The notes: generated by a model from the sequence alone, not told the origin. A DNA stretch of 64,000 nt from Oscillospiraceae bacterium (GCA_015068025.1 SVLH01000006.1:9920-73919); one strand, 5' to 3'. Counted from the first letter of the stretch, positions 9,314 through 40,757 are shown. Numbers and translations are program-made.

Positions 9314-9823
9314 TTATGCCCGAAACTCCATGAAGATGCCGCCATGCAGGGTGGAAAAACGCGGCTGTGTGCCGGTCATGGCTCCCACAGGGGTCACCTC
9401 TATGGAGAGGTGGGCGGGCTTCAGGCGGGCAAGTGCCCGTTCCAGAGCAGCGGTGTCCTCCGGAACGCGATTGTTTGCGATCACATTCAGGAAAACACGA
9501 AAATTGGCGAAATCTTCCGTGATCTCGGCGCTGTCGGCACCGCCCAGCGTAGCCGCCAGCTCTGCCAGATATGCGGGGGTCAGCGTGCGGCCGCCCGCCA
9601 TGGCGATGCGGATGTCCAGCCGTCGCCTTTCCGCATTGCCGCCGGAGCGATCCTGCAGACCGTAATCTGCCTCCCAGAGGGAGAGCGCGTCCGTGGCGGT
9701 GTTGACACACACCTGCGCATTTTTGCTGGCCACGGCGTCCAGAAGAAAGGCCTCACCGGCGGCCACGGAGGAGAGGGTTTCCCCCACGGGGGAAAGGGTT
9801 GTTAAAAATTCCGGAAGCTTCAT
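9314..9823 (-). CDS. baseplate wedge/fibre-attachment protein, XkdU/YmfQ (DUF2313)-like
   Basis: 'VNTATDALSLWEADYGL...ERRRLDI' and 'LERALARLKPAHL' motifs; start overlaps the XkdT-like stop. Confidence 0.8.
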   Translation of the reverse strand: MKLPEFLTTLSPVGETLSSVAAGEAFLLDAVASKNAQVCVNTATDALSLWEADYGLQDRSGGNAERRRLDIRIAMAGGRTLTPAYLAELAATLGGADSAEITEDFANFRVFLNVIANNRVPEDTAALERALARLKPAHLSIEVTPVGAMTGTQPRFSTLHGGIFMEFRA

Positions 9824-10602
9824 GCGCCTGCCTCCTGCAAGGACAGCGTGCCGCACACCGGCACCGCGTTTTCGGCCAGGATCAGGCTCTGGTCGCCGCC
9901 ATTGAGAGCGAAGCCGCTCACATCCGCTACGCCCTCACAGTCCAGCAAAAGGCGCAGAGCCTTGGAGTAGCTGACCGTGGTGGTGCGCAGTGCCAGGTCA
10001 CGGCAGAAGCTTGTCAAAGCGGCGGTAAATGCGGCGCAGACGGCTTCGATCTCGGCACCGTCCATCAGTCTGACCGCGGCGGAAACGTTCAGCGCCGTTT
10101 CTTCGGCGGCAAGGACGCGCGCATCGGCGCCGATGGGGCGCTCTCGATCCACCGCGGCCTGCGCTGCGGCAAGAACTGCGGCAGAGGGCGCTTTTCCGTC
10201 CGAAGCCACCGCCACAATGTCCACGGTACCGTTTCCTCTGGCCAGAGGGAACACTTTCACGCGCAGGAGATCGGGGCTTTCCAGACACCAGGCCTCGTAG
10301 TGGTCGATGTTGCCGGAGGCGGGGATGCCGGCCAGCTTTTCCAGTGTGCGGGCGCGCAGATCCTCGTCGCTTTCGTTTTCGCGGCGCACAACGCCGCGGT
10401 CTGCGCAGACGGCGGTCAGCCAGTCGCCGATGGCGGTGGAAACGAAAGCGCGGCGTTCCAGTCCGTCAATGTCCATGCTCCACAGCTGTGCCATGCCGTC
10501 GGCACAGGCACGGAGCACGTCGCCGGCAAAGGTGCCCTCCCGTGTGCTGCCGGGGCCGGCATAGGCGTCCAGCAGCAGCGTCAACATTTCATCCTTGGTC
10601 AT
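9820..10602 (-). CDS. baseplate J/XkdT-like protein (internally shortened)
   Basis: REGTFAGD, ESDEDLRAR, SGNIDHYEAW, VFPLARGNGTVDIV, RPIGADARV. Confidence 0.9.
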   Translation of the reverse strand: MTKDEMLTLLLDAYAGPGSTREGTFAGDVLRACADGMAQLWSMDIDGLERRAFVSTAIGDWLTAVCADRGVVRRENESDEDLRARTLEKLAGIPASGNIDHYEAWCLESPDLLRVKVFPLARGNGTVDIVAVASDGKAPSAAVLAAAQAAVDRERPIGADARVLAAEETALNVSAAVRLMDGAEIEAVCAAFTAALTSFCRDLALRTTTVSYSKALRLLLDCEGVADVSGFALNGGDQSLILAENAVPVCGTLSLQEAGA

Positions 10603-11036
10603 CCGATGGGAACCTCCAGTTTCTGAATATATTCGTCATAAATGGTGTGTACGGTGAACGACGCCTCCACCAGACTGCCCGTCCTTGAAAAGGAAAAGGT
10701 GTCCACGGCGGTGATATAGGGCAGGATCAGCAGGGCATCCCGGATATACTGCTTCAGTCGGCTCTCCAGAATGCCCTGGTCGGTGACGCCGCCCAGCAGA
10801 TGTTCCAGCTCGTTGCCGTAATCTGCGGACCATGCGGTGCAGCAAAAGCGCCGGCTTTCCGGGTGCAGGGCGCGCCAGACCCATATTTTCACGGCCTCGG
10901 TGCCGGTCACGGTGTAAAAGCTGCCGTTTCGCATGGCCAAGGTGCCGGCGTCCCAGTCCACGGCCCATTCGGTAAACGGGGGGAGCGTGCTGTTTGCGGT
11001 TTGCGCGGATACAGTCCCCCAGTCCGGAAAGATCAT
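10599..11036 (-). CDS. XkdS/DUF2634 sheath-initiator-like baseplate protein
   Basis: EWAVDW, VTGTEAVKIWVWRAL, DYGNEL, IRDALLILPYI, FTVHTIY. Confidence 0.85.
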   Translation of the reverse strand: MIFPDWGTVSAQTANSTLPPFTEWAVDWDAGTLAMRNGSFYTVTGTEAVKIWVWRALHPESRRFCCTAWSADYGNELEHLLGGVTDQGILESRLKQYIRDALLILPYITAVDTFSFSRTGSLVEASFTVHTIYDEYIQKLEVPIG

Positions 11037-11293
11037 GTGCTTGCCTCCTCGATTTGAAATAAGATCACAAACCCCTCCTCACAGGGCAGCAAGGCCACCT
11101 CACAGCCCAGATCCTCCTGCTCGAATGTCGTTCCGTGGGGGCAGAACAGGCCGCGGCTGATCTCCCGGCCCCGTACCTGCAGCGTCAGGGGAGAGAGGGA
11201 GGTCAGCGTGCCGAACAAGCCAACGGGGTTTCCGGCGGGCTTTGTTTGCAGGAGATCCAGGAGATCTCCGTAAATCATTCCGTTTGTGCCCAT
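11033..11293 (-). CDS. XkdR/DUF2577-like small baseplate (spike) protein
   Basis: 'GTLTSLSPLTLQV' and 'LGCEVALLP' patterns; lies between the XkdQ- and XkdS-like genes. Confidence 0.65.
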   Translation of the reverse strand: MGTNGMIYGDLLDLLQTKPAGNPVGLFGTLTSLSPLTLQVRGREISRGLFCPHGTTFEQEDLGCEVALLPCEEGFVILFQIEEAST

Positions 11294-11364
11294 GATTTTG
11301 GCTTCCTCGCTTTCTTTGTTTGTGTTTTCCGCACGGAGGCTTGAAAAACGCCCGTGCGAAGCGG

Positions 11365-12258
11365 TCATTTCCGTATGAATTCCAGCTGCATGGCGGTGGT
11401 GTAGATGCCGCCCTCCCAGCGATGCTCCGCGGCGGTGACGGCGTATACGCCGTCCAGCCCCCACTCACTGCGGTGCAGTTCGACGGCACAGCCGCAGCGA
11501 TAGTTCAGGTTGCCCATCACCGTCACTTCGCCCCGCAGGCTCCGTCCGGTCAGCGCGGCCTTTGCCTGTGCCGCAGGGTCGTCGCCGTTTTGCGGCAGGA
11601 AGGTCTGGAACTGTCCGTAGGCAGAGATGTCGTCAGGGCACTCTGCCGCGGCGCGGGCGATGTTCTTCCGATCCACCACGGTGCAGCGGTTGACCATGTG
11701 TGCAAGGGATGCCGTGCCGGAGACTTCCAGCACCTGGGAGGGCTGCAGCACATAGACGATGTAGGCATGCTTTGTCACGCACAGGGCATCGTCCCGAATA
11801 GAGATCTCAAACTTCTCTCCCACGGTCTGCCGCAGGATGGAAAATGCACTTTCTCCGGAATAAGAGGCGAAAAAGCGCATCCCCGGCCCGGTCTCCACCG
11901 TGCCGACGGCAATGCCAAGTTCCTCGGCGACCTGCTCCACGATGTCCGCGCTCTCACCGAAGTATGCGCCCCGCAGCTCGTTGCGGGTGAGGAAGATGCC
12001 ACGGTCATACGCGGTGAGGATCACGCGTTCCGGCGTGCGTTCCAGCACATGGATGCTGCCCAGAAACGCCTCCTTGCCGTCGTCATCCAGCAGCCGGACG
12101 GGATCACCCAACGCGAGGGACAGTTTTTGGATATAGGTATCCGCGGCGGCCAGAAGGATGGTGGCAGTAAGGGTGGCGGCAGCTTCGCTGCGCGCCTTGT
12201 GCAGCGTCAGGGACTCCAGCACGGGAAGGATCATCTGCTGTCCGATGTATAGCTTCAC
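11365..12258 (-). CDS. XkdQ/YqbQ-like baseplate hub protein
   Basis: LGDPVRL..FLGSI, LTAYDRGIFL, AEELGIAVG, YGQFQ, YAVTAAEHRWEGGIYT; synteny. Confidence 0.85.
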   Translation of the reverse strand: MKLYIGQQMILPVLESLTLHKARSEAAATLTATILLAAADTYIQKLSLALGDPVRLLDDDGKEAFLGSIHVLERTPERVILTAYDRGIFLTRNELRGAYFGESADIVEQVAEELGIAVGTVETGPGMRFFASYSGESAFSILRQTVGEKFEISIRDDALCVTKHAYIVYVLQPSQVLEVSGTASLAHMVNRCTVVDRKNIARAAAECPDDISAYGQFQTFLPQNGDDPAAQAKAALTGRSLRGEVTVMGNLNYRCGCAVELHRSEWGLDGVYAVTAAEHRWEGGIYTTAMQLEFIRK

Positions 12259-12911
12259 AGCACGATCACCTTCCCGATCTGCAACTTGCGGGGATCGGAG
12301 ACCCCGTTTTTGGCGGCCAGTTCCTGCCAGCGGGTGCCGTCACCGAAGAAACGGCAGGCGATATCCCACAGGGTGTCGCCCTTTTTCACGGTGTAGGTCT
12401 GGGGCGTGACGCGCTCGTCCGTTCTGGCAGGTGCGGACTGCACCCCGCCGGACGGCGCTTTGCCGGACTGCGCCCCCACGGACTGCTTTTCCGCAAGAGC
12501 CGCCAGAGCGGATTTGAATTTGTACTCCCGCAGGGTGACGGAGATTCCCACATCCGGGTCACCTTCCCGCAGGTACTCCGTCACGTCCTCGATCAAAAAA
12601 GCATCGTTGATGTCGCTGCCGGAGAGGATCAGGCGGATGGGATCGCCGGAGTCCTGCCAGCTTTTCAGCATGGAGAGAATCGTCTCCGGGTCGTTCCCGT
12701 CGGAAAAGGGCGAGTGGGCGGCGGGGAGAAAGGTGGTCAGCCGCACCTCCCGCAGACCCCGTCCGCCCCAGAGATTCACGGTGCCGCCCATGGCCAGAGA
12801 AGCCACGCGGTTTCGGTTGGGGCGGGAAACGGAGATCTCCGCGGGGTTGACGGCAAAGTAAATACGTTCTGCTCCGTTGTTGTGCCAGAGCAAAACGGTT
12901 CTGGTGTTCAT
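12255..12911 (-). CDS. XkdP-like tube initiator with C-terminal LysM domain
   Basis: FAVNPAEI N-terminal domain; YTVKKGDTLWDIACRFFGDGTRWQELA..N...DPRKLQIG LysM. Confidence 0.9.
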   Translation of the reverse strand: MNTRTVLLWHNNGAERIYFAVNPAEISVSRPNRNRVASLAMGGTVNLWGGRGLREVRLTTFLPAAHSPFSDGNDPETILSMLKSWQDSGDPIRLILSGSDINDAFLIEDVTEYLREGDPDVGISVTLREYKFKSALAALAEKQSVGAQSGKAPSGGVQSAPARTDERVTPQTYTVKKGDTLWDIACRFFGDGTRWQELAAKNGVSDPRKLQIGKVIVL

Positions 12912-12921
12912 AACAGTCCTC

Positions 12922-13815
12922 CTATCTTACAGCGGCCGCATTGCGCAGCCCCGCCAGAATGCGGCGTGCTACCCGTTCTGCCAGCGCGTCTTCGTCGATG
13001 GCCTCCCGGGTTGGATACGATGTCCTGACGTCAGCGGCGTCTTTCAGCGCAATTTCTGCGGGTGGCGCAGCAGCTTCGCCCACGAACTGGTCATCGGAAG
13101 CGGCGGAGAGCTGTGCGGCTGGGGGGATGACCGGGTGTACCGTCGGCCATTCTGCCGGCGCACTGTGGGCAAATCCCGGCGCTGCAAGCTGCGGGATCTC
13201 AATGGAAGATACTGCTGCAGGCTGCCGGAGAATGGAAAGATTTCCCGAAGCGACGTTCTTGGGTGCGGCCCGTGTGGGGTCGACGGCAGGCGAAGCCTCC
13301 GGTACGGCAAGGGCTTCGCGGAAAACGGCAGGTGCCTCCGGAGCGGCCGGCGCTTCGTTGGAAACGGCAGGTGCTTCCGATGCGGCAAGGAGGCCCCGGG
13401 AAAGGGCGGGCAAGGGGGCGGGAACGGTGAGATCACCGCCCGCCGCATCTTCATCCGCGCCTGCCGGCAGGGATGCTTCTTCTGCCTGTGCGGTGCGCTC
13501 CGGGAGAGATTGATCCATCCCGCTCAGTTCCAGGATTGTCCGGACGGCAGATTGCGTTTCATCTTCCGAGAGAAATGCCATGATCTCGTCCGGCTGAAAA
13601 AGGCTGCCCGCCTTGCGCAGATCTTCTCCGGCCGCCTGCAGTTCCCTGCAGGCGGCGTAGAGGACGGCGCGCGCGCCACCGGCGCCGCGCAGCAGCGCGG
13701 TCAATTCTGCCGGAGGCAGCGCTTCCACGGTCAGAACGCCCAGCGCACCGCATGCGACCTGTGCGCGATTTCCTTTGCGGGAGAGGCGCTCCCGCAGAAT
13801 ATCCGTCAGAGCCAT
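12922..13815 (-). CDS. XkdN-like tail chaperone fused through an Ala/Pro-rich linker to a tape-measure-C-terminus-like helix
   Basis: first ~100 aa end in 'PDEIMAFLSEDETQSAVRTILELSGM'; low-complexity middle; C-terminus 'EAIDEDALAERVARRILAGLRNAAAVR'; occupies the chaperone+TMP slot. Confidence 0.55.
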   Translation of the reverse strand: MALTDILRERLSRKGNRAQVACGALGVLTVEALPPAELTALLRGAGGARAVLYAACRELQAAGEDLRKAGSLFQPDEIMAFLSEDETQSAVRTILELSGMDQSLPERTAQAEEASLPAGADEDAAGGDLTVPAPLPALSRGLLAASEAPAVSNEAPAAPEAPAVFREALAVPEASPAVDPTRAAPKNVASGNLSILRQPAAVSSIEIPQLAAPGFAHSAPAEWPTVHPVIPPAAQLSAASDDQFVGEAAAPPAEIALKDAADVRTSYPTREAIDEDALAERVARRILAGLRNAAAVR

Positions 13816-14258
13816 TATTCAGCGGCCTGAATGCGCTCCAGACACTGGAGATCGCTGGGGCGGAAGCGGAAGGGCAGCTTCTGCTGGTTCACCTCGCCCA
13901 TCTTGTAGCCGATGAAGGGCAGCTCGGTGAATGCCACGCCGGAGATGCTGTAGCGCTCCTCCATGCCGCCGGCGGCGTCGGGATCCTTCAGGGCGGTGGT
14001 GATGGTGCAGCGCTTGTCCAGGCCATTTTTGGCCTGCTCCAGAACCTCGAAGAAGCGGCTGTAGACCTGCTTCAGGGTCATGGTACCCTCGCCGGAATAG
14101 CCGGTGATCTTGCTGTCGATGTCCATGCCGAACTGCACCTTTTCCCGCTGCACCTTGACGGTGAGGGTCAGCTCGCTCAGTTCGGCAATGCGTGCGCCGT
14201 CCACCCAGACCTCGGCGAAGGAGCCGGACAGGGTGCGGTTTGCCTGTAAATTACTCAT
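13815..14258 (-). CDS. XkdM-like tail tube protein
   Basis: LSGSFAEVWVDG, SKITGYSGEGTMTL, LKDPDAAG...ER, KLPFRF. Confidence 0.92.
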   Translation of the reverse strand: MSNLQANRTLSGSFAEVWVDGARIAELSELTLTVKVQREKVQFGMDIDSKITGYSGEGTMTLKQVYSRFFEVLEQAKNGLDKRCTITTALKDPDAAGGMEERYSISGVAFTELPFIGYKMGEVNQQKLPFRFRPSDLQCLERIQAAE

Positions 14259-14276
14259 GATTCGTCATACCTCCTG

Positions 14277-15305
14277 TTACATGGCGATGCGCAGGGAGAG
14301 ATCTTCCATGGCGTCGCAGAATGTCAGGTTTGCCTCCAGAAAGACCTCACTGCCGGTGTTGGCGCGCAGGATCTCGGCGTCCGTCATGCCGTCGGTGTCG
14401 ATGCCCCTGGATTCCAGATAGGCCTTCTGCCCGGCAAAAGACACAAAGCAGCGGTTGTCGGCGGTCTTGTCCAGCACGTCGCCCGCCAGGGCGGTCAGAT
14501 AGGCGTTGATGGCGGTGACCAGCAGCAGTTTGTTGTCGTAATCGTTGAGAACCTTGCCGATATAGCCGGACTCGAAGGTTCTGGCGATATCGGTGCGGAT
14601 CAGGTCGATGCCCTCCACGATCTTGATCTTCTGGAAGGGTGCGCCCTTGTCGGCGGTCAGGCTGGTCAGGGAATTGACGGCGCGGCCCAGACGATAGCCG
14701 TCCTGTCCTCTGACGATGATGAGCTTGCCGGCGTCCACTTCGGCGTCGGCATCTTCGTAGCCTGTGCAGGACACCACCTCGTCCAGCGCCACATAGGTGG
14801 CGGAACGGGTCAGGGGGAGAGCCGCCAGAATGGCAGCAACGCGGACGGTGTAGTCGGCGGCGTCAATGGCGCCGTCGTCCAGGATCAGGTCGTCCGCGCA
14901 CAGATTCACAATTCCCTCGCAGTCGGATGCCGTATCGGCCACCACGGCCTTGACGCCGCGGCCACAGCTGCGCTGGTTCTTGATGAAACTCACGACCTCG
15001 TCGGACTCCATGCCGGGGGCGGCCAGCCAGTCGAAGGGCAGCCGCTCCAGAGCGGACAGCGCGCCGTCGCCGGCACGCAGGACGCACACCTTGGAGGGGG
15101 CGGCGCGGAATGCCAGCTTCAGCAGACGGTAATTGTCCGCGGTAAACTGCTCCGCGGGGACCTCGGAGAGATTGCGGTAGACGGCCTCGGCGGCCCCGCC
15201 GGCGGTGTTGTCGTCCAGCACCAGAGCCAGAATGCCGCGGGCAGAGCGGGTGATCGCGGATACGGCCGCGGTTTCAAATGCAATAAAAATTTCGGGTAAA
15301 CCCAA
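14277..15305 (-). CDS. contractile tail sheath protein (clostridial myophage/diffocin type)
   Basis: TTG start after GGAGG; MGLPEIFIAFETAAVSAITRSARGILALVL, RSATY, RAVNSLT, FQKIKIVE, YIGKVLNDYDNKLLL, DAMEDL. Confidence 0.93.
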   Translation of the reverse strand: MGLPEIFIAFETAAVSAITRSARGILALVLDDNTAGGAAEAVYRNLSEVPAEQFTADNYRLLKLAFRAAPSKVCVLRAGDGALSALERLPFDWLAAPGMESDEVVSFIKNQRSCGRGVKAVVADTASDCEGIVNLCADDLILDDGAIDAADYTVRVAAILAALPLTRSATYVALDEVVSCTGYEDADAEVDAGKLIIVRGQDGYRLGRAVNSLTSLTADKGAPFQKIKIVEGIDLIRTDIARTFESGYIGKVLNDYDNKLLLVTAINAYLTALAGDVLDKTADNRCFVSFAGQKAYLESRGIDTDGMTDAEILRANTGSEVFLEANLTFCDAMEDLSLRIAM

Positions 15306-15354
15306 TGAAAAAGCCTCCTTTTTCCGACCTGCCGCAGCAGGTGCGGTTAATCTG

Positions 15355-15777
15355 TCAAATCTCAAAATGCAGAATATTCATGCGATCTGTGGCCGGAGGA
15401 ACGGCAGTTTCCGCAGGCGGGACAGGAACGCACAGCTCCAGGGAGAATGTCAGACATTCCTCCTCCGTGCGGATGTTCAGCGGATGCAGGTTCCGGGGCG
15501 TACCGGCCAGCTCCAGCGGGATTCCCCGCAGCAGGGGCGGCACGAGGGAAGACAAAAGCGCCATGTTCCCATCCCGTTCCCGGTCACTGACGGCGGTGAC
15601 TGTCACCTGATAAGAGTGTTCCGCCTGCTGTCCGCCGCAGAGAAGAACGGTGCCGTTCTCCTGCACGGATACCGCCAGCAGGGGATATTCTCCCCGGATG
15701 CGGGTGCGGTCGGAAACGGTTTTCACACCGGCTTGCTCCTGCAAGTACGCCCTTACGGCCTCCTGAATGATCTTCAC
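15355..15777 (-). CDS. putative tail terminator/neck protein
   Basis: 140 aa ORF directly upstream of the sheath, GTG start overlapping the previous stop; assigned mainly by synteny. Confidence 0.55.
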   Translation of the reverse strand: MKIIQEAVRAYLQEQAGVKTVSDRTRIRGEYPLLAVSVQENGTVLLCGGQQAEHSYQVTVTAVSDRERDGNMALLSSLVPPLLRGIPLELAGTPRNLHPLNIRTEEECLTFSLELCVPVPPAETAVPPATDRMNILHFEI

Positions 15778-16124
15778 GGCTCTGCCACCTCCATGATGTC
15801 CACAACGGTCACACAGTGGGAGGGATAGAGAATGCTGTCGGACGTTCTTCCGTGAAACACTCTGCCCGCGGTGTCCGACACCTCGACCCGGTCTCCCAGC
15901 TGAAAGGTGCGCTGGGGAAGGGTATACAGGCTGAGGCGGTACGCCGCCTCCGGCAGCACATAGGTGCTGTCGGGAGGGGCGGGAGCCGCGACTCTTGCCA
16001 GTCGGCTGAGGGCGCATTTTTCGTTTTCACAGACCGGCCTTTCCCCGTCCGGCCCCATCCGCCACGCGGAAACGCGGTGGTAGTAGGTGCGGGAGAGGAT
16101 TGCCGCACAGGCGTTGTCGGTCAT
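15774..16124 (-). CDS. head-closure (stopper) protein
   Basis: 'TYYHRVSAWR...VCENEKCALS...LGDRVEV...YPSH' pattern of Firmicute phage head-closure proteins; synteny. Confidence 0.65.
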   Translation of the reverse strand: MTDNACAAILSRTYYHRVSAWRMGPDGERPVCENEKCALSRLARVAAPAPPDSTYVLPEAAYRLSLYTLPQRTFQLGDRVEVSDTAGRVFHGRTSDSILYPSHCVTVVDIMEVAEP

Positions 16125-32589: not shown

Positions 32590-32590
32590 T

Positions 32591-34087
32591 ATGCCCCTGC
32601 TCAAGCCAACTGCCGCCTGGAAGCGGTACATTCCGCTCTGGCAGGAGGCGGTGTTTCCCCTCTGCTTTGCCCTGACGGGACTGCTGCACTTTTTCCTTTT
32701 TTATCTGGGTCTTGCTTTTGAAGAAAATGCTGCCCGCGAGACGCTGTTTGCTGTCGGCTGTGCGCTGTATGCCGTGGTGTGCGGTCTCTCGTTCCTGCGC
32801 GTCATCAAGGAGCGCCTGCTGCCGGGCAAAACCTGGGTGCTTCTGGCGCTGCCGGCGTTGTTTTTCGGCGCCTGTTTCCTGCTGCGCATGAAGGAACACG
32901 GCCTGTCCGGCGGCACGCTGTCTGCTGCAGGGCAGTTTGTCGTGCTTTGTGTGCCTGCCTTTTTTGCGGGCGTGTGCTGTGCAGCGCGGCGCAAAGAAGC
33001 GGCGGTTTTTCCACTGCTGGACAAGATGAGCTTTCTGGCGCTGCCGGCGGTGATCGTCTATGTGAACGGTGCGCTGTTCCATTGCAATCCGTTTGGCTGG
33101 AATCAGGATTTTGGCATCTTAAGCTATATGACCTTCGCCTACGCCCTGATGCCATTCCTGCTGGCACAGCTCCTGTGCTTTTGCGGGAAGGAGCCCCTTC
33201 ACATCCCGTTTTATCACAAGGAAGTGCGCCATCCCCAGTGGATCCGGGGCGGAATGATCGTTCTGTTCTGGACGGCGATCATCGCATCGGGCACCCGAGG
33301 TGCGTATTTCTGTGTCATCGGCTTCTGCATCCTGCTGGTTCTGTTTCGGCTGCGCAGCAGGAACGGAACGCTGAAACGAGCGGGCGCGGCAGCGCTTGCC
33401 GTGACGGCTATGCTCCTGTTCAGCATCTTCGTGTATGCGCCGAAAGGCTTTCACGTTGGACGCATGGAAACCTTCCTGGAAGGGTTGATGCAGGGCCAGA
33501 TCATCACCGACTCCGGACAGAATGAGGATGTGGATCAGTACCTGGATGATCTGGTTGCCGCCGACGGAGGAGAACAGGTCGTCAACCGCCCCGACAAAGA
33601 GCCCCCCCAGACGGAGCCGACTCCTCCCGAAGAAGTGACACCCCCCGAGGAAACAATGCCTCCCGAAGAAGAGGCTCCTCCGGAAGAGATGCCTCCCCCG
33701 GTTTCTGACATGAACCTGCAGATCGGCAACCGCGGGACGCTGTACAAACTGGCAATGATGGAATTTATGAAATCTCCCGTGACAGGCATGGGCCCCGGAA
33801 ACTATACGCTGAAGTACGGCAAGTATCCCCATAATGTGCTTCTGGAGCTGCTGTGCGAAACGGGTCTTGCGGGAACGATCCCTCTGGTGACGCTGATCCT
33901 CTGGGCAGTCATACGGCTGCTCCTGATCGGCAGAAAACGGCCGGAAGTCAGCAGCATTGTGCTGATTTTCGCGGCTTTTGCCATTCAGGCGTGTATCAGC
34001 GGTTCGCTGTGGAACTGTCCCGCCCTGCTGTGCGCACTGGGCTACGGCCTTGCTGCTTTGGGAAAGGAACCGGAAAAAACTTTGTGA
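32591..34087 (+). CDS. O-antigen polymerase/ligase-family membrane protein with a Pro/Glu repeat loop
   Basis: multi-TM; SGTRGA, R..LY..A...F..SPVTGMG, YPHNVLLELLCETG; PPEE repeats at about 33600-33700. Confidence 0.75.
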   Translation: MPLLKPTAAWKRYIPLWQEAVFPLCFALTGLLHFFLFYLGLAFEENAARETLFAVGCALYAVVCGLSFLRVIKERLLPGKTWVLLALPALFFGACFLLRMKEHGLSGGTLSAAGQFVVLCVPAFFAGVCCAARRKEAAVFPLLDKMSFLALPAVIVYVNGALFHCNPFGWNQDFGILSYMTFAYALMPFLLAQLLCFCGKEPLHIPFYHKEVRHPQWIRGGMIVLFWTAIIASGTRGAYFCVIGFCILLVLFRLRSRNGTLKRAGAAALAVTAMLLFSIFVYAPKGFHVGRMETFLEGLMQGQIITDSGQNEDVDQYLDDLVAADGGEQVVNRPDKEPPQTEPTPPEEVTPPEETMPPEEEAPPEEMPPPVSDMNLQIGNRGTLYKLAMMEFMKSPVTGMGPGNYTLKYGKYPHNVLLELLCETGLAGTIPLVTLILWAVIRLLLIGRKRPEVSSIVLIFAAFAIQACISGSLWNCPALLCALGYGLAALGKEPEKTL

Positions 34088-34106
34088 GAGGAGGGAGATC
34101 TGCCTC

Positions 34107-35612
34107 ATGAAACACAACAAGATCCTCAAGGCGCTGTTCTCGGTGACCGGCGTCATCCTGCTGTCGAAACTGTTGGGTTTCGTGAAACAGATGGTCACGG
34201 CCGGCGTGTTTGGCGCCACCATTGAAACAGACCTCATCCACCTTTCCGAAGGATTTGTCGGAAACATCAAATATGTTCTGGTGCAGACTCTGCTGACGGC
34301 CTTTGTGGCAGTCTATCTCCACACGAAGGAAGAGGACGACGGCGCGGCCCGCCGCTTTGCGGCCGACACCGGCAGAGCCTTTACCGCCATCACCGCGGTC
34401 ATGGTGGCAGTGGTCATGCTGTTTGCCCCGCAGATCGCCCGGATCATTGCCCCCAGCTATCCGGCCGAGCTTACAGCCCGTCTGGCGATGTATCTGCGGA
34501 TCTTTTCGCCGGCGCTGGTATTGTTTGTCTGGATTGCGGTGTTCCATGCGCTGCTGAACGCAAACCAGCGGTTCATCCCCGGAGAACTGGAAGGTGCCAA
34601 TCAAAGTCTGATCCTGCTGGCGCTGGTGGCGGGGCTTGCCTCCGTCCTGGGAGTGCGGATCCTTGTCGTTGCCTTCCTTGCCGCGGCAGTCTGGAACGCG
34701 CTGTTTCTGGGCGTGGTGTCCCGCCGATACTGGGAAGCCGCCCGCAGTAATCCCTTCCGCAACCCGGCGGTGAAAGAATTGCTGCGCATGACCGGCCCGC
34801 TGCTGTTGGGATATGCCATGGTGTACATCAACCAGCAGGTGGGAAATATTCTGGTCTCCGGGCTGGAGGCGGGCACCGTGACCGCCATGGACTACGCGGC
34901 AGTGCTTTTCAATCTGGTGGGCACGCTGATCGGCTCCTTCTGCTCCATTTTGTTTACGTACATTACGAAGAAGATCTCCCAGAAAGATCACGAGTCTGCG
35001 GCAAGGCTGACGCTCCGTGCTGCGGTGCTGCTTGTGGCGGTGTTTTTGCCCATCAGCATTCTGATGATCCTGTGTGCGGAGGATATCGTAACCATTGTGT
35101 ACGGCCGCGGTGCCTTTGCGGCCGACAACATCCGCGTTGCTGCGGATGCGCTGGTGGGCTTCTCCCTCGGTGTTGTTCCTCTGGTGGTGCGTGACCTGTT
35201 CAGCCGCGTGCAGTACGCCTATCAGGATTCCAAACAGCCTATGATTAACAGCACCGTCTCCATTGCCGTCAACATCGGCTTGAGCGTTGCCCTGTGCCCG
35301 GTCTTGGGCGTGCTGGGCGTGAGCATGGCGGGCAGCGTGTCGCTTCTGGTCTGCGGCGGGCTGAATCTGATTACCGCCCGGCGGCACAATGCGTTTCTGC
35401 GCTACGGCGAACTGCTGAAATGCCTGCCGTGGCTGTGCGTGGGCAGCGTGGTCTGCCTGCTGACCGCCCGCTGGAGCATTGGCTGTTGGCAGACGCAGGG
35501 CGCGTTGCTTCGCTTTGCTCTGGTGACCCTGACGGCCGGCGGCGCGTATGCGCTCTCCGTCAGCCCCCTGCTGCTGCGGCTGCTCCGCAAGGAAAATGAG
35601 CCTGCGGCTTGA
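34107..35612 (+). CDS. MurJ/MviN-family flippase
   Basis: SKLLGFVK, FGATIETD, IVYGRGAF, QDSKQPM; many hydrophobic segments. Confidence 0.85.
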   Translation: MKHNKILKALFSVTGVILLSKLLGFVKQMVTAGVFGATIETDLIHLSEGFVGNIKYVLVQTLLTAFVAVYLHTKEEDDGAARRFAADTGRAFTAITAVMVAVVMLFAPQIARIIAPSYPAELTARLAMYLRIFSPALVLFVWIAVFHALLNANQRFIPGELEGANQSLILLALVAGLASVLGVRILVVAFLAAAVWNALFLGVVSRRYWEAARSNPFRNPAVKELLRMTGPLLLGYAMVYINQQVGNILVSGLEAGTVTAMDYAAVLFNLVGTLIGSFCSILFTYITKKISQKDHESAARLTLRAAVLLVAVFLPISILMILCAEDIVTIVYGRGAFAADNIRVAADALVGFSLGVVPLVVRDLFSRVQYAYQDSKQPMINSTVSIAVNIGLSVALCPVLGVLGVSMAGSVSLLVCGGLNLITARRHNAFLRYGELLKCLPWLCVGSVVCLLTARWSIGCWQTQGALLRFALVTLTAGGAYALSVSPLLLRLLRKENEPAA

Positions 35613-35643
35613 TATGGAAACATGATTGGAAAGGACGATCTGT

Positions 35644-37575
35644 ATGTGCGGGATCAGCGGATATTTGAATCTTTCCTCTGGCGTGCAGACCGGCATCCTT
35701 CGCAGGATGAACGATGTGATCCGCCACCGCGGGCCGGACGATGAAGGCTATGCCCTGATCGGCCCGCAGAAGTGCGCGAATTGTGGCGGGCCGGACTCCG
35801 ACCCCCGATTGGAGCTGCCTCTGCTGGAACAGACGGACGCTTCCGGGGCCTTTTTGGGTCTGGGGCATCGCCGCCTGAGCATTCTGGATCTCTCGCCTGC
35901 CGGCCACCAACCCATGGGACTTGCGGAGCGCGGGTTGACTGTGACCTATAACGGAGAGATCTATAACTACCCGGAACTGAAGGCGGAACTGACCGCGCTG
36001 GGCCATGTGTTTCACACCGCCAGCGACACGGAAGTGCTGCTGGCAGCTTACAGCCAGTGGGGAGAAGACTGCCTGTCTCACTTCAACGGCATGTGGGGCT
36101 TTGCCCTCTGGGACAGCCGGGAGAGAAAACTGTTCTGTGCCCGGGATCGGCTGGGAGCCAAGCCGTTCCACTATTATCATCAGGGCGATTTTTTGCTGTT
36201 CGGCTCGGAACTGAAGCAGCTCTGTCAGGATGAAACCATCCAAAAGCACTTCGACAACGCCACCCTTGCGGCGAACCTGATGTATCACCTGAGCGATTAC
36301 AATGACCGCACGCTGATCGAAAATATGCGCGTTTTGAGACCGGGCCATAAGCTGGTGGTTCGGCTCTCGTCGGACTGCCGGCACATCGAGGAGTTCACGG
36401 TCTCGCCCTACTGGCAGCTGGAAACCGGCTATCGGGAAGACTTCTCCGCTGCACAGTGGCAGGAGATGGTGGAGGAGGAATTCTCCCGCGCCTGCCGCTG
36501 GCGTCTGCGCAGTGACGCGCCTGTGGGTGCGCTGCTCTCCGGCGGTCTGGACTCCTCCTGCATGGTCACAGAACTCTGCAGCCAGCTGGGCGACCCCGCT
36601 GCCCTGCAGACCTTCACCACCAGTTATCCCGGCCATTCCGACTGCGATGAGTGGCATTTTGCCGACATGGTCAACCGTGCCTGCGGCTGCACCGGCCACC
36701 AGTTCATTCCTGACCCCACGGATGACATCGAACGCCGCTTTGAAAACGTGGTGTGGCACGTGGAGGGCTTCAGCGGCCCTGCGCTGCTTGGCCCATCCAT
36801 GCTGCTGGAGGACATCCGTCGTCGGGGCATCAAAGTGATCCTGAACGGCCAGTGCGGCGACGAGACCATGTTCGGCTACGAGCGGTATTATGCGTATTAC
36901 TTTGCGGATCTCCTGAAAAAAGGAAGGGTCGGCACGGCGCTGCGGGAATTCCGTCTGGCATCACAAAACTCCAGATTCTCGGCGGGCACGCTGCTGCAGA
37001 TGATGGTGTATTTTAACCTGCCTGCGGTGCGGGATACCCGCCAGCTGCGGCGCAGCGGCGCCTTTGTCCGGCAGGAACTTCTGCAGGAGCGTGACTGCGA
37101 GGAGCTGCACAATCTTCTCTATCCTGCCAACCTCCAGCAGCTGCAGAAAACCGAACTGACGGCCACCCAACTGCCCCACATCGTCCGCTATGATGACCGG
37201 CTGTATATGGCGGCCTCTATCGAAAGCCGCATCCCCTTTATGGACTATCGCTTTGTCCAGCTTTCCGCGCAGATTCCCCCCCACATGAAAATCGAAGACG
37301 GCTATACCAAGAGCATCATGCGAAAGATCTTTGACAGCCGGATGCCGAAGGAAGTGACCTGGCGGACGAACAAAATGGGCTTCGGTGCACCGGAAGCACA
37401 GTGGATGGCGGCCTTTTCCAGGGCGTATCTGCTGGACCAGCTCAGCACCGCAAAAACAGCGCCCTATTTCCACACAGACAGACTTGCAAAACTGGTAGAG
37501 GAACAGCCTGCGAACCCCGCAATTTTTGCGTTTTTGCAGGCGGAGCAGTTTGCCCGGCAGTTTAGCGTAGACTAA
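35644..37575 (+). CDS. asnB: asparagine synthase-like glutamine amidotransferase (likely sugar amidation)
   Basis: MCGI N-terminal Cys, HRGPD, HRRLSILD, NGEIYN, LLSGGLDSS, ESRIPF. Confidence 0.88.
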   Translation: MCGISGYLNLSSGVQTGILRRMNDVIRHRGPDDEGYALIGPQKCANCGGPDSDPRLELPLLEQTDASGAFLGLGHRRLSILDLSPAGHQPMGLAERGLTVTYNGEIYNYPELKAELTALGHVFHTASDTEVLLAAYSQWGEDCLSHFNGMWGFALWDSRERKLFCARDRLGAKPFHYYHQGDFLLFGSELKQLCQDETIQKHFDNATLAANLMYHLSDYNDRTLIENMRVLRPGHKLVVRLSSDCRHIEEFTVSPYWQLETGYREDFSAAQWQEMVEEEFSRACRWRLRSDAPVGALLSGGLDSSCMVTELCSQLGDPAALQTFTTSYPGHSDCDEWHFADMVNRACGCTGHQFIPDPTDDIERRFENVVWHVEGFSGPALLGPSMLLEDIRRRGIKVILNGQCGDETMFGYERYYAYYFADLLKKGRVGTALREFRLASQNSRFSAGTLLQMMVYFNLPAVRDTRQLRRSGAFVRQELLQERDCEELHNLLYPANLQQLQKTELTATQLPHIVRYDDRLYMAASIESRIPFMDYRFVQLSAQIPPHMKIEDGYTKSIMRKIFDSRMPKEVTWRTNKMGFGAPEAQWMAAFSRAYLLDQLSTAKTAPYFHTDRLAKLVEEQPANPAIFAFLQAEQFARQFSVD

Positions 37576-37616
37576 AAAACAAAAAAACAAGAGCGGATGG
37601 CAAAGCCATCCGCTCT
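37575..37616. terminator. terminator ending the portal-fibre operon (possibly bidirectional)
   Basis: agagcggatggc-aaa-gccatccgctct hairpin; long T tract on the minus strand. Confidence 0.8.
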
Positions 37617-37620
37617 CTCG

Positions 37621-37767
37621 TTATGCCTGTGCCTCCAGTTCCGTCAGGAGAAGGGCGCGTTCCGCCTCGGTCAGTCTGGGGTACTCCTGCAAAATATCAT
37701 CCAGCGCCTCACCGGCATCCATTCTGCGCTGTACCACACGGCACAAAAGCTTCAGAGCCAGAGTCAT
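37621..37767 (-). CDS. 48-aa phage-type small protein at the XkdX position (not in ORF track)
   Basis: MTLALKLLCRVVQRRMDAGEALDDILQEYPRLTEAERALLLTELEAQA; ATGA overlap with the upstream stop and a GGAGGTGA RBS. Confidence 0.7.
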   Translation of the reverse strand: MTLALKLLCRVVQRRMDAGEALDDILQEYPRLTEAERALLLTELEAQA

Positions 37768-38048
37768 ACTGCCTCACCTCCAAACAGCAGCATGGCGATG
37801 AGGGCTTCCACATCCGCCAGCATCGTTTCCACAGCCGCCATACGATGCTCATGAGAGGGATTTTTTCTGCGCCAATCCGCGCGCAGGGTCTCAGAGCAGT
37901 CGGGGCGGGAAGAAAGCTCGCAGTCAGCTGCAAAGCAATCGTAAATGACGCCTTCCTCCGTTACTGCGCTTTCTGCTGTGTAGGAAACCGCTTTTTTGAT
38001 GGTGAGCACGGGCGTTTTCGTCCCGATTTTGTACAAATACAAGGTCAT
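37764..38048 (-). CDS. putative tail-fibre chaperone (XkdW position)
   Basis: RBS ggagg; C-terminal coiled segment 'EHRMAAVETMLADVEALIAMLLFGGEAV' as often seen in genes following fibres. Confidence 0.55.
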   Translation of the reverse strand: MTLYLYKIGTKTPVLTIKKAVSYTAESAVTEEGVIYDCFAADCELSSRPDCSETLRADWRRKNPSHEHRMAAVETMLADVEALIAMLLFGGEAV

Positions 38049-38060
38049 GATCGTTCCTCC

Positions 38061-39155
38061 TTACAGCAGCGAGCCGTTGGCCGCTACGATGAGTCCGCCG
38101 CTTTTCACGTTGCTGCTTCCACCCAGCGTGCTGGGGGTGCTGTCGGCGAGCAGCACGATGCCGCCGTTCCATACGAAGGCGCCGACGCCGTTTCCGGAAA
38201 AGTTTTCCGCCTGCGTGCAGGTAACGGTCACCAGAGACATCAGCCCGGCAAACACCACCGTGGAGAACTGTTTGACAGAGCAGTTCTCCAGCATCACGGA
38301 GGAAAAGTGGAGCGCATTGACGGCGCGGACGCCGGCTTCCTGATTGTGTCCCGTCAAAGCGCATCCGTTCAGTCGGACGCCGCGGCAGTTTTCGATCTGG
38401 ATCAGACCGGAATTGGAGGGCAGTCCGGCAGGTGCGTTGATCTGCAGGTTCAAAAGCTGCACATAGGCGCTGCAGTCGATCAGGGAAATCTTGTTTTGGA
38501 TCACGCAGCCGCCGGAGTGGTCGGCCGTGATGCGGATGATCCCAGGGCCGTGAAAGCCCTGAATCCGCAGGGGCGTTGTCAGGGTGCCGGTGGCGTTGAT
38601 GATGATGCTCTCCTGCAGGAAACGAGGCTGCGCGTCCAAAAACGCCTGCAGATCTCCGGCGTCCAGATGATAGGTGTTTTGAGGGACTGCACCGGCAAGT
38701 TCCACTCTTGCCCTGATGGGAGCCAGCGCTCCCTCTGTCAGCAGCCCGGCGGGGGAGCAGGTGACGGTGGCCTCTGCGTCCTCCAGAACTGTCTCCTCCA
38801 GATAGAAGCGCAAAACGGCGCTGCTGCCGGCGGTGATGTGCATTGCCTCGGTCAGACGATAGATCTTATACAGGATCTCTCCCTCGTCGGGATCCTGCGC
38901 ATATACGCCCAGTTCCGTCAGGGTGTAGTTGCCTGCGGCATTGGCAGCGACCAGCGTGGCGGGGATCACGGCGGTGTTGCCGTTGCGGCTGGGGGTGTTG
39001 ACGGCCAGCGTCTGCTGAATCTGATTCAAAGCAGCGGCTTTGGCGTGCGTAGTGCCGCTGCCGGCCAAAACCCTGGTGACCGTCAGCGCTGCGCCGGCGG
39101 ACAGCTTTGCCGCCAGTTCCAGCCCTTTTTCTGTAAAAATACCATAGATTTCCAT
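38061..39155 (-). CDS. tail fibre/receptor-binding protein: collar-fibre N-domain plus beta-helix-like C-domain
   Basis: 'FTEKGLELAAK...VTRVLAGSG' and 'YTLTELGVYAQDPDEGEILY' baseplate-attachment motifs; repeated short strands (IENCRGVRLNGC, VMLENCSV). Confidence 0.8.
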   Translation of the reverse strand: MEIYGIFTEKGLELAAKLSAGAALTVTRVLAGSGTTHAKAAALNQIQQTLAVNTPSRNGNTAVIPATLVAANAAGNYTLTELGVYAQDPDEGEILYKIYRLTEAMHITAGSSAVLRFYLEETVLEDAEATVTCSPAGLLTEGALAPIRARVELAGAVPQNTYHLDAGDLQAFLDAQPRFLQESIIINATGTLTTPLRIQGFHGPGIIRITADHSGGCVIQNKISLIDCSAYVQLLNLQINAPAGLPSNSGLIQIENCRGVRLNGCALTGHNQEAGVRAVNALHFSSVMLENCSVKQFSTVVFAGLMSLVTVTCTQAENFSGNGVGAFVWNGGIVLLADSTPSTLGGSSNVKSGGLIVAANGSLL

Positions 39156-39167
39156 ACTCATCCTCCG

Positions 39168-39458
39168 TTATCGGATCCGCTGGATCCCGCGTCTGGGACG
39201 CTGGGGTGCGGGTGCTGTTACGACAGGGGGTTGCTGGGGCAGGCGGGAGCGAATGTCGCCGGCCAGAGCCTCCTGATAGGCGGAGCGAAACTGCTCGGCT
39301 CGCTGATCGGTGTCCCCATCATCCGCGCCGATGAGCAGGGGTGCAAAGGATGCGGGGATGCCCGCTCGCTCCAAAGCCTCTCTGGCGCGATGGGTCTGTT
39401 CCCGCTGATGCTTTTCCAGCCGCAGCGTTTCCAGTTCCTGTTTTTCTTCTTCGGTCAT
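39168..39458 (-). CDS. capsid scaffolding protein (DUF4355-like, short)
   Basis: 'AREALERAGIPASFAPLLIGAD...F...Y...L...I..RL...PP' scaffold pattern; directly after the portal gene. Confidence 0.7.
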   Translation of the reverse strand: MTEEEKQELETLRLEKHQREQTHRAREALERAGIPASFAPLLIGADDGDTDQRAEQFRSAYQEALAGDIRSRLPQQPPVVTAPAPQRPRRGIQRIR

Positions 39459-39500
39459 TGTGGTTCTCCTTTCCTCCGTGTCAATGATGTTGAGCGGCAC

Positions 39501-40757
39501 TTACTGCGCTTGCTGTTCTGCTTCCATGCGCCGCAGTTCTTCCTCGGCGTCCGTCACCCAGGGCAGATGTTCCAGAATGGTGCGTGTGGACAGCACCGGG
39601 GTGAGGGAGAGCAGGGTTCGGGCCATGGCCTCGTGATCCTGGGGCAGATTTTTGTAGAAGGTGGCTTTGCCCTCCGCCAGTCCTGCGCCGCAGCCCAGAA
39701 CGGCCAGGCCGCCGTCCAGCGCGGACAGGAAGGCCGTCAATCCTTCTCTGAAGCTGCGCTCCTTGGCAGCGCGCACCTGCTCGATGCCCCACAGCTTGTA
39801 CTGCAGCGCCACGCCGGAGGCGTTGCCGGCAAAGCCCTCGTCGGAGAGGTCGGGGGTCATGGACAGCTGCAGGATGCTGCGGCGGAGATTGTTTTCCAGC
39901 TGCGCAAGAGCCTCGTGGTTCAGGTTCTTCACCACGAATTCTGCCCTGCCGCCCTCTGCCAGAGAGAGGACGCGGGTGCGGTTGGCGTTGTCGATGTCAC
40001 CCTGGGTCGTCCCCTGCATGCCGTACAGCGCCAGGAAGGCGTTTGCCACGGACTGCATGTCATCCATGGCGCCGGAGAGCAGGAGATTGTAGGCGTCCAC
40101 CAGACCCGTCACCTGCTGGAAGTCGCCGCAGCCCTGACAGTTGTTGGAGAAGGGGATCAGAGGCAGAGTGCGGAGCAGATTTTCCTCCGGGGCGCCCAGA
40201 CGGACATTGGTTCCGTTCCAGACGAAGGGGTACAGGCGATCCGCCTGATACAAAATGCCCCTGGTCTCTCCCTTTTGCCCCTGAAACAGGCGGACGGATC
40301 CCACAAGAGGAGCCCCGGCCGTTCCGGCGCGGATGGAAAAGCAGGAGAGGGGATCGCACCGGCAGGCCTTCAGTCCGCTGCGCTCCAGCCAGACCAGCAG
40401 AAAGCCTGTGCCGCAGATGCTTAAGTCCCGGCCCAGGTCAAAGAGCAGATGCTCCAGCCCCAGCTCGGCGGACAGGGCGGAAAAGACCTGGCCTGTCTCC
40501 GGGCGGTCGAAGGCCATGGTGGGGGGGAGCCCCAGAAAGTATCCGGTGTGCACCTCGGTGATGTAGCGGGGGAAGGGGACGCGGAGCAGGTTGTTGGGCC
40601 GTCCCCGGACGGCCTCGCCTTTTGGAACGGGCTGCTGACCCCGGTAATAGTCAAACAGTCGTTCCCGCTGGGGACGGACGCGTCGGAAGAAGTCGGCAAC
40701 CGCATCCGACAAAACTTCTTCGGTCAGCGTTTCGGCGCAAATATAGTCCTGATTCAA
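39501..40757 (-). CDS. SPP1 gp6-like phage portal protein
   Basis: RLFDYYRG, PNNLL..PFPRYI...TGYFLG.P, SNN.QG.GDF...L.DAYN, PDLSDEGFAGNASGVALQYKL, LPWVTD.EEEL. Confidence 0.93.
   Translation of the reverse strand: MNQDYICAETLTEEVLSDAVADFFRRVRPQRERLFDYYRGQQPVPKGEAVRGRPNNLLRVPFPRYITEVHTGYFLGLPPTMAFDRPETGQVFSALSAELGLEHLLFDLGRDLSICGTGFLLVWLERSGLKACRCDPLSCFSIRAGTAGAPLVGSVRLFQGQKGETRGILYQADRLYPFVWNGTNVRLGAPEENLLRTLPLIPFSNNCQGCGDFQQVTGLVDAYNLLLSGAMDDMQSVANAFLALYGMQGTTQGDIDNANRTRVLSLAEGGRAEFVVKNLNHEALAQLENNLRRSILQLSMTPDLSDEGFAGNASGVALQYKLWGIEQVRAAKERSFREGLTAFLSALDGGLAVLGCGAGLAEGKATFYKNLPQDHEAMARTLLSLTPVLSTRTILEHLPWVTDAEEELRRMEAEQQAQ

Follow-up and report, generated by a model that had tools for sequence, protein, structure and literature searches.

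The window analysed here is a stretch of 64,000 nucleotides from an Oscillospiraceae bacterium (contig C39:9920-73919 of the source genome G000, which amounts to 1.54 Mb in 39 contigs and is 71% complete), and it carries two blocks of genes for a phage-derived head and contractile tail, a candidate gene transfer agent (GTA). Genomes are denoted by G, loci by L, public runs by X and contigs by C, the contigs being those of G000 unless another genome is named. Block 1 (9314-17379) consists of 13 and block 2 (37621-40757) of five abutting open reading frames (ORFs), all stop-free, on the minus strand and mostly with Pfam or PHROG family matches, and the GC content of both blocks resembles that of the host. 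Block 1 ends in an intrinsic terminator with a 17-pair hairpin (9276-9313, minus strand) and has as host neighbours an SLH protein and a small-multidrug-export family protein. Block 2 ends in a terminator with a 13-pair hairpin and a T run (37589-37617, minus strand), and its neighbours, an asparagine-synthase-like gene and a CapD-like gene, both belong to a surface-polysaccharide cluster. A scan of 65 window ORFs revealed no gene for terminase, integrase, replication or lysis. A preliminary description of the window had claimed two intact, tightly coupled blocks, each with its own terminator and direct host flanks, and a window free of these four kinds of genes, all of which was borne out. 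No canonical promoter was found before either block in sigma-70 scans.

Block 1 begins with the major capsid protein (16447-17379, 310 amino acids (aa); phrog_422, E 1e-57; 31% to the phiCD119 capsid), which is followed by head-tail adaptor 1 (16121-16447, 108 aa) and head-tail adaptor 2 (15774-16124, 116 aa), both recognised by weak matches (phrog_132, E 6e-5, and phrog_615, E 1e-4, respectively). The tail terminator or completion protein (15355-15777, 140 aa) has no family match and was named by its position; the same-position genes of locus L128 and prophage locus L019 match phrog_525, which supports the name. The contractile sheath (14277-15305, 342 aa; phrog_1480, E 1e-105; PF04984 and PF17482) starts with TTG behind a ribosome-binding site, and the tail tube (13815-14258, 147 aa; PF09393, E 5e-28) precedes a fusion of tail assembly chaperone and tape measure (12922-13815, 297 aa). 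The baseplate genes comprise an XkdP-like tube initiator with a C-terminal LysM (12255-12911, 218 aa; PF01476, phrog_380 and its position in related prophages), which carries the PHROG label 'endolysin' because of its LysM, the XkdQ (YqbQ) hub (11365-12258, 297 aa; PF24032, E 7e-19), a shortened XkdR-like spike (11033-11293, 86 aa; no family match, assigned by position and by alignment to prophage genes at the same position), the XkdS sheath initiator (10599-11036, 145 aa; PF10934, E 1e-22), XkdT/baseplate J (9820-10602, 260 aa; PF04865, E 1e-30) and an XkdU/Mu gp48-like baseplate wedge (9314-9823, 169 aa; PF10076, E 1e-13; phrog_521). The hub aligns only to the hub part (residues 32-311 of 581) of the Clostridioides difficile hub-hydrolase CD1368 (PDB 8v3w_H, E 0.002).

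Block 2 encodes an SPP1-type portal (39501-40757, 418 aa; PF05133, E 8e-61), whose TTG start is conserved in relatives, the head scaffold (39168-39458, 96 aa; PF14265, phrog_172), a tail fibre or spike (38061-39161, 366 aa; N-terminus phrog_7037) and two post-fibre genes conserved with the fibre, gene 1 (37764-38048, 94 aa; no family match) and gene 2 (37621-37767, 48 aa; phrog_28526, E 3e-5). Most of the gene names proposed earlier were recovered by Pfam or PHROG, those of the tail terminator and the spike depend on position in the absence of a Pfam match, and neither post-fibre gene matches Pfam. Codon adaptation peaked in the high-copy genes, namely tube (0.76), capsid (0.75) and sheath (0.65), compared with 0.45-0.59 for six host genes.

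Mis-assembly had been raised as a possible cause of the split, and this was rejected. The blocks also lie apart on one contig in six other genomes (G078, with the same neighbours, G148, G165, G086, G298 and G448), and the host/block junctions at 9300, 37600 and 40800 were spanned by contigs of public runs. The segment 37560-37956 was spanned in X7 and X8, which come from two other studies; X1 and X5 may be the source sample. For the junction at 17400-17690, no bridging piece was present among the matches listed.

In relatives, a third module lies divergent from the capsid gene and encodes the large terminase, Mor and often a Rep3-type initiator (Rep) with a primase-helicase. When G000 was searched with the relatives' proteins, terminase (524 aa, 82%; phrog_38, E 3e-102) and Mor (90 aa, 78%; PF08765) were found as an orphan two-gene operon at C6:6712-8582, between host genes. 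G078 has this operon at the same site; in most other carriers, it and the capsid gene are transcribed divergently. In alignment, the Walker A, Walker B and nuclease acidic residues of the terminase, which we take to be its ATPase and nuclease motifs, match those of the intact prophage enzyme, and the enzyme is predicted to be catalytically intact. The Pfam terminase families PF04466 and PF03237 gave no match in G000, a misleading result because the Mu-type terminase itself has no Pfam match. No small terminase was detected in G000 by tblastn with the G021 protein, nor in five genomes with the Mu gp27 family, a weak search in which the positive control was also silent. In G178, G072 and G150, the gene immediately upstream of the terminase encodes an 83-aa protein with a single membrane segment (phrog_462; L126:9296-9547, L134:1484-1735), which looks like a relic of the Mu-like middle operon.

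An orphan lysis cassette, located via its neighbouring genes, lies at C13:14229-15136 and encodes an XhlA-like protein, a small membrane protein and an M15 endolysin; the membrane protein, whose PHROG family is of unknown function, is a putative holin by its position before the lysin. In G182, a related cassette and the portal operon diverge from each other. Searches of the 71%-complete G000 assembly detected neither the holin family PF05105 nor a CHAP endolysin, Rep or the primase-helicase. The particle system comprises four loci on three contigs (C39, C6 and C13), all between host genes, and no integrase was seen on these contigs among the matches listed (four of the six tyrosine matches of G000). 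The four loci span at least 98 kb, compared with 53 kb for phiCD119 and 37 kb for Mushu; in most other carriers the blocks lie within 18-45 kb. The preliminary description had placed packaging, lysis and regulator genes elsewhere and advised a genome-wide look for an orphan terminase, holin/endolysin and activator, and all three kinds were indeed found in the same genome.

The loci are linked by two motifs. Motif A (TTGCAY-N6-RTGCAA, 18 bp) occurs at exactly two sites in G000, where 0.16 are expected, and both precede loci of the element, namely the terminase-Mor operon and the lysis cassette; the same half-sites with other spacers of 2-12 yielded a single site altogether. If one mismatch is allowed, motif A stands upstream of the terminase in 14 of 22 loci, a set that includes close kin, and in neither of two prophages. 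A motif A specific to the element or bound by its own Mor was rejected, as the motif also occurs in non-carriers. Motif B, a dyad whose centre lies about 43 bases upstream of the predicted start, is found in front of the capsid gene in 14 of 18 related loci. In the window it reads GGAA-N4-TTCC (17476-17495, minus strand) before the head-tail operon, about 21 nt before a -10-like hexamer, and with a matrix built from relatives this site ranked first of 1402 upstream regions in G000 (score 25.3 vs 14.4 for the next). Since the position of the dyad matches that of the Mu Mor site, which is centred at -43.5 and replaces the -35 box (PMC4390567, accessible part), motif B is likely to be the Mor-binding site. 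Motif B before the portal is strong in G086 and G101, with the same spacing as a weak half-site in the window (40811-40831, minus strand; 74 nt before the portal, score 4.2, rank 135 of 1402).

G017 and G021 carry the nearest intact relatives, prophages (L131, L132, L019 and L020) that are apparently complete Mu-like transposable myophages with an SPP1-type portal. These prophages and Mushu share with the element the order Mor-terminase-portal-scaffold-capsid-neck-sheath-tube-baseplate, at identities of 53-57% for terminase, 43-45% for sheath and 27% for capsid. However, they have a transposase, a small terminase, a NusG-like gene, MuF, a gp10-like neck gene and a tape-measure body, none of which was found here; a search of G000 with the G017 and G021 prophage proteins gave no match for transposase, small terminase or MuF. 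The scaffold has 96 aa compared with 220-226 aa in the prophage homologues, its C-terminal part alone being kept, and baseplate J has lost about 90 aa internally in all carriers.

The preliminary inventory held as described, but it had missed that the 297-aa gene at 12922-13815 is all that remains of chaperone and tape measure, the latter having 744-832 aa in the prophages. The fusion is laid out as chaperone (1-100), a predicted-disordered linker (106-269) and the C-terminal helix of the tape measure (275-296). The chaperone domain matched the prophage chaperone by profile comparison with a probability of 93% and E 4e-7, in an eight-row alignment whose inclusion of one prophage chaperone favours the match, and the tip aligned at 42% over 26 aa (E 0.28). 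Foldseek gave no match for the fusion protein at E 0.001, just weak chaperone rows. Across loci the ends are conserved and the middle is unalignable, at lengths of 189-483 codons, and the reading frame of the fusion is preserved at 15 of 16 loci, all but that of the decayed G077. No hydrophobic window was present in the fusion, compared with 20-34 in the prophage proteins. Another family, whose capsid is 55% identical, has the same short baseplate J and fusion and has kept its fibre gene as the last of the tail operon; the design is therefore old.

Block 2 is an insertion in the host surface-polysaccharide cluster, which fills 19 kb between the blocks (18256-37575, plus strand; Wzy_C, DegT, Bac_transf, glycosyltransferases, MurJ and Asn_synthase by Pfam) and resumes past block 2 with the CapD-like gene (40983-42878). 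The fibre has a conserved baseplate-binding N-terminus and, at residues 158-366, a variable pectate-lyase-like right-handed beta-helix according to the alignment and a structural model (predicted local distance difference test score 88). The model superposed on 7xks with Z 17.6 and a root-mean-square deviation of 2.5 over 191 aligned residues; by Foldseek, the best E was 0.002. The tip evolves fast, with an identity of 30-46%. The beta-helix fold is common to many polysaccharide-binding tailspikes, and a shared fold alone is no proof of function. Of the 14 genomes where the fibre was located, 10 have a polysaccharide-synthesis gene no more than about 3 kb away from it, a count made without a matched control. 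In G148 it stands at the edge of a glycan cluster, and in G019, G178 and G182 it is not visibly near glycan genes. The fibre trio lies among glycan genes with portal and scaffold elsewhere in G086 and G101, and with no portal found in G072. Two fibre operons are present in G148 and in G182; those of G182 (L156:1-3306 and L157) are two different portal-scaffold-fibre operons, with portals at 69% and 74% to that of the window, one of which comes with an additional fragment of XkdU and with a lysis cassette in divergent orientation.

Within the genus, the capsid was found at 70-93% identity (threshold 70%) in 12 of 165 genomes including G000, a thirteenth match being a prophage at 27%; it was also found in 4 of 400 family genomes (four other genera) and in 1 of 400 order genomes; a species-wide pattern scan gave 17 loci. 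G072 and G075 hold parts of the system only, and the carriers are scattered over a 49-genome host tree. The ratio of nonsynonymous to synonymous divergence (dN/dS) was below 0.55 for every gene in seven pairs (Nei-Gojobori), the preliminary description having proposed to check for a ratio well below 1. Between G000 and G078, the synonymous divergence (dS) was 0.18-0.63 for head-tail genes and terminase compared with 0.42 for hrcA and 0.25 for grpE, and it reached 0.91-1.59 for the portal-fibre block. The pair G019-G165 gave 0.18-0.68 and 0.94-1.20, respectively. No portal-fibre excess was seen in G086-G101, and in G148-G165 the head-tail block was too distant as well. In three sister pairs, the dS of head-tail genes and terminase was like that of the host.

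Tree distances (FastTree, with a two-gene host tree) were compared without the broken or partial G077, G150, G072, G075 and G454, and without G079 in the portal tree. The distances of head-tail genes and terminase followed those of the host (Mantel r 0.86 for 13 genomes; 0.82 within the genus), and within the genus the portal gave r 0.31 (p 0.14). In G298-G448 the element distance was 0.11 and the host distance 0.41. The vertical phylogeny suggested for checking was thus seen for head-tail genes and terminase, but not for the portal-fibre block or for two discordant pairs. The dS values and tree distances point to an old domestication, mostly vertical, with many losses and some lateral exchange, in which the portal-fibre block was, by these distances, swapped between species. 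The branch separating the element from Mu-like prophages is long, about 1.1 substitutions per site. All 12 IMG/VR matches share the streamlined layout and none is a whole phage. Among 50,697 phage records, the best matches were 32% for capsid, 31% for portal and 53% (to Mushu) for terminase, apart from the fragment MT838800.1. This 4.9-kb record from human faeces (L293), deposited as phage, is the terminase-Mor-Rep part of the element plus a neighbouring host gene. A patchy presence with complete prophages as closest relatives, named earlier as an outcome that would refute the proposal, was found in its first half only, since no close intact phage appeared in the collections searched; pseudogenisation in relatives was seen in G077 and a few single genes, the others being under purifying selection.

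Rep, with the primase-helicase, is present in 8 of 18 carriers, always beside terminase-Mor and among surface-layer (S-layer) and glycan genes, with a dN/dS of 0.07-0.15 and no match among 72,556 plasmids. ParAB genes adjoin the blocks in G086, G101, G178 and G450. A tyrosine integrase lies 6-8 kb from the helicase in G019 and G165, an integrase-like domain directly follows the helicase in L190, and among the matches listed no integrase was found on the element contigs of 10 of 12 genomes. Iteron-like repeats occur in the fusion linker of 9 of 10 Rep-bearing and 3 of 7 Rep-less loci. These arrays of a 20-bp repeat, with spacings of 33 and 45 bp and both orientations around a CTCACRTGAG palindrome (L047:11262-11871 and equivalents), sit inside the tape-measure linker and flank Rep, are absent from G000, G078, G182 and G298, and may be iterons or partition sites coded in frame.

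Tracing motif A into non-carriers revealed cluster B, a 13-kb small terminase-to-baseplate cluster under this motif (L267:6044-19467, on C66 of G091; also L276, L277, L290, L291 and L292). It shares with the present system a compact head, a contractile tail, a short tape measure and the operator; however, it is a single, near-core locus with a small terminase and a protease, and without fibre or lysis genes inside. Its capsid occurs in 120 of 165 genus genomes (64 of 78 of high quality) at 72-85% identity, single except in two fragmented assemblies, and the two systems are unrelated, just baseplate J (27%) and LysM being alignable. Orphan fibre-like and lysis genes outside cluster B carry motif A as well. 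No published description of cluster B was found in the literature searched. Cluster B was present in 4 of 14 carriers compared with 116 of 151 non-carriers (Fisher p 0.0004; about 0.001 when completeness was taken into account and two kin pairs were merged), and the present system apparently stands in for cluster B, which most sister species carry. Cluster B precedes a lipoprotein-like gene and a two-component pair in G135 and G019, next to a tRNA in the latter; the corresponding site on C13 of G000 is assembled and holds no cluster B genes, and in G086 just motif A and a lysin are left there. The simplest reading is that the present system plugged into the operator of cluster B, the two being functionally redundant. 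In non-carriers, motif A precedes the lysis cassette in 4 exact and 2 near cases among 26 loci. Because of this and the wide occurrence of the holin family, the C13 cassette may be a shared host asset inherited from cluster B. The KdpDE-like pair beside cluster B is unsupported as the reader of motif A; G000 has the motif, and its regulator matches reach just 35-36%.

Intact loci, purifying selection and broad co-divergence with the host support the earlier view of a host-maintained head and contractile-tail machine, and we regard a host-maintained system, not debris, as highly likely. Beyond this, our favoured reading, which we hold to be probable, is that the four intact loci form one phage-derived system working as a GTA, a second and undescribed GTA-like system of Oscillospiraceae. 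The preliminary suggestion of an undescribed GTA or nanomachine is sharpened in this way, although the choice between a GTA and a PBSX-like killer is not decidable from sequence. According to the accessible part of PMC9662315, GTA viriforms have caudoviricete-like particle proteins, are fully endogenised and often multi-locus, co-diversify with the host by mostly vertical descent, cannot package their own whole gene set, pack random host DNA and deliver it to other cells. Here, head, neck, tail, baseplate, fibre and terminase matches were found at four loci, and the Mantel values given above bear on co-diversification. The span of at least 98 kb in G000 and the 18-45 kb of the blocks in other carriers bear on the packaging limit. 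GTA-like packaging without identified genes has been reported in Oscillospiraceae (PMC12946183 and 10.64898/2026.07.08.737213, accessible parts); no published description of this four-locus system was found in the openly accessible literature, subscription papers being outside the scope.

We speculated that the system would operate as follows. In what is probably a minority of cells, a host regulator would bind motif A and turn on terminase-Mor and lysis, and Mor, to judge from the motif position and the Mu precedent, would activate the capsid-tail and portal-fibre operons via motif B. The large terminase, with no small subunit detected, would start packaging without sequence preference, and random host DNA is predicted to be packed into small heads with short contractile tails and delivered to kin. 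The beta-helix fibre would bind the surface polysaccharide made by the surrounding genes, and the sheath would contract through S-layer and wall. Because the tape-measure remnant has no membrane segment, the DNA would stay outside the membrane, for uptake by ComEA/ComEC and recombination by RecA, and XhlA, holin and M15 endolysin would release the particles. In relatives only, Rep and primase-helicase would over-replicate the S-layer/glycan region, so that surface genes would be packed preferentially. A separate phage-type primase-helicase run-off origin in a region of host-surface genes is described for the Bartonella GTA (BaGTA) in the accessible part of PMC2697382, and a run-off-like peak without a particle cluster for Pelethomonas in that of 10.64898/2026.07.08.737213. 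More tentatively, and with considerable doubt, Oscillospiraceae could own two unrelated, interchangeable contractile-tailed GTAs on one host operator, the rarer of which would have a disordered ruler fused to the tail chaperone in place of a tape measure, no small terminase, a glycan-binding fibre inside the polysaccharide cluster, so that lock and key are co-inherited, and a run-off module preferentially spreading surface-coat genes among matching coats.

Several points weigh against the GTA reading. The system is known here from genes alone, no particle, transcript, packaged DNA or transfer having been observed, and ComEC and ComEA in G000 were identified by short motifs only. With neither a tape-measure body nor the MuF minor head protein left, the particle may not inject DNA at all. 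In 8 of 22 loci, no motif A was seen upstream of the terminase, and motif B is weak before the G000 portal. Presence is patchy in genus, family and order, with carriers scattered on the host tree, and inheritance is not strictly vertical, G148-G165 and G298-G448 being discordant with host distances. Furthermore, G077 shows decay (stops in capsid, sheath and terminase), one stop each was found in the L116 terminase and the G079 hub, the G450 fibre is cut beside a transposase, and capsid and portal were not found in the 98%-complete G072. The exclusion of cluster B is weaker in high-quality genomes (3 of 6 vs 61 of 72, p 0.07), and kin are not independent. Moreover, the holin family occurs in 102 of 165 genomes, and motif A stands before lysis genes also in non-carriers.

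A head-less tailocin was excluded. R-type tailocins of the diffocin type have no head or packaging genes; the contractile tail and baseplate are shared, but here capsid, portal, scaffold and terminase are intact and under purifying selection. An active Mu-like prophage, in which transposase and replication genes adjoin the structural genes, does not fit either, as the G017 and G021 prophage proteins gave no transposase match in G000. An unlikely but more serious alternative is a PBSX-like killer, in which host DNA is stuffing and the particle acts as a bacteriocin, its fibre targeting foreign glycans and staying next to the producer's own glycan genes as a guard against self-killing. PBSX packs DNA without injecting it and acts as a tailocin (PMC12946183, accessible part), and the Xkd-type contractile tail, the absent MuF and the reduced tape measure agree with such a role. 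An arms race would also fit the divergent fibre tip, the decoupling of the portal-fibre block from the host tree, the two fibre operons of G182 and G148 and the patchy presence. Nevertheless, the remnant lacks the hydrophobic segment that prophage tape measures have and the hub lacks the hydrolase part of CD1368, which also weakens pore formation, and the run-off-type module and apparent substitution for cluster B fit DNA transfer better. The fibre-glycan linkage would be favoured under both kin targeting and self-killing avoidance.

It is less likely still that the element is a selfish, satellite-like mobile island which Rep, primase-helicase, ParAB and sometimes an integrase move with the adjoining surface genes, G000 being a scattered, recently tamed or doomed derivative. 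The frequency of Rep, the ParAB genes, the integrases near the helicase (G019, G165 and L190), the iteron-like linker repeats, the close spacing of blocks in most carriers and the short element distance in G298-G448 would suit an island. However, in three sister pairs the element and its host have the same dS, a small terminase that could make packaging self-specific was not detected, most genomes showed no integrase on the element contigs among the matches listed, the integrase of G019 and G165 abuts an inverted S-layer gene pair, Rep matched none of the plasmids, and G000 and G078 keep all particle genes intact and dispersed without Rep. Least probable is a slowly decaying prophage remnant, or a particle of other use (decoy, lysis for DNA release, spare-tail donor), without transfer or killing. 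The element is rare, often lost and pseudogenised in G077, and tape measure, MuF, gp10-like neck gene and small terminase are missing; yet all 18 window genes are intact, the fusion has stayed in frame through its length changes, the same truncations occur in the other family, promoters were re-acquired after the splits, and codon adaptation tracks particle stoichiometry.

If the GTA reading holds, its relation to known systems is as follows. To our knowledge, GTA-like systems with contractile tails are few, and PBSX is one of them; its genes form a single locus, which includes both terminase subunits and a long tape measure. The present system and PBSX of Bacillus subtilis share a fixed chromosomal head with Xkd-type contractile tail, an XhlA-holin-endolysin set and no autonomous cycle; here, in contrast, four loci, a Mu-type terminase with no small subunit found, a Mor activator, the chaperone-linker-tip fusion and a fibre in a glycan cluster are seen. 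With BaGTA it shares particle genes plus, in 8 of 18 carriers, a separate primase-helicase module near surface genes (PMC2697382, accessible part), but the sequences are unrelated, the host phylum is another, and the module is optional, not found in G000 and, judged from its genes, only presumed to amplify. The Faecalibacterium agent FpGTA, compared by its description in the accessible part of PMC12946183, is likewise a system of gut Clostridia with at least two dispersed operons, head, terminase, fibre and lysis genes and no replication genes; it is podovirus-like and near-universal in its genus with a small terminase candidate, whereas sheath, tube and baseplate are present here and the system is rare. 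RcGTA of Rhodobacter is also multi-locus, with a very short tape measure, polysaccharide-binding fibres and competence-protein DNA uptake (the last presumed here), but differs in its non-contractile tail, structured tape measure and other phage ancestry (PMC7296036 and PMC9662315, accessible parts). Each of the following would be new to biology: a multi-locus contractile GTA in a Gram-positive host, an apparent swap of domesticated phages under one operator, a fibre tied to host glycan genes, and a tail that lacks a real tape measure. They would bear on how phages are domesticated, how gene flow is limited to kin and how tail length is controlled. The parts list is complete and testable, with an operator, an activator and a cultured carrier (L114).

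Some minor observations concern the surroundings of the element. The small-multidrug-export family gene (PF06695; 17550-18017, minus strand) stands before the capsid gene in the window and between the terminase and capsid genes in many carriers. In G165 (L048:9132-15897) and G019 (L138:310-6467), a tyrosine recombinase is followed by two convergent S-layer genes with an inverted 660-bp repeat (81-85%), possibly an S-layer switch or an island integrase. Motif A lies near phage-type replication-initiator-like genes in G091, G010 and G182 (L271:6952-7908, L282:612-845 and L279:5345-5725), which hints at run-off origins under the same regulator. Finally, orphan genes of 160-190 aa directly behind motif A (L180:1550-2110, L268:11362-11850 and L273:3676-4185) share a phage-fibre-like N-terminus; two of the three adjoin S-layer genes, and they are candidate accessory fibres of the motif A regulon.

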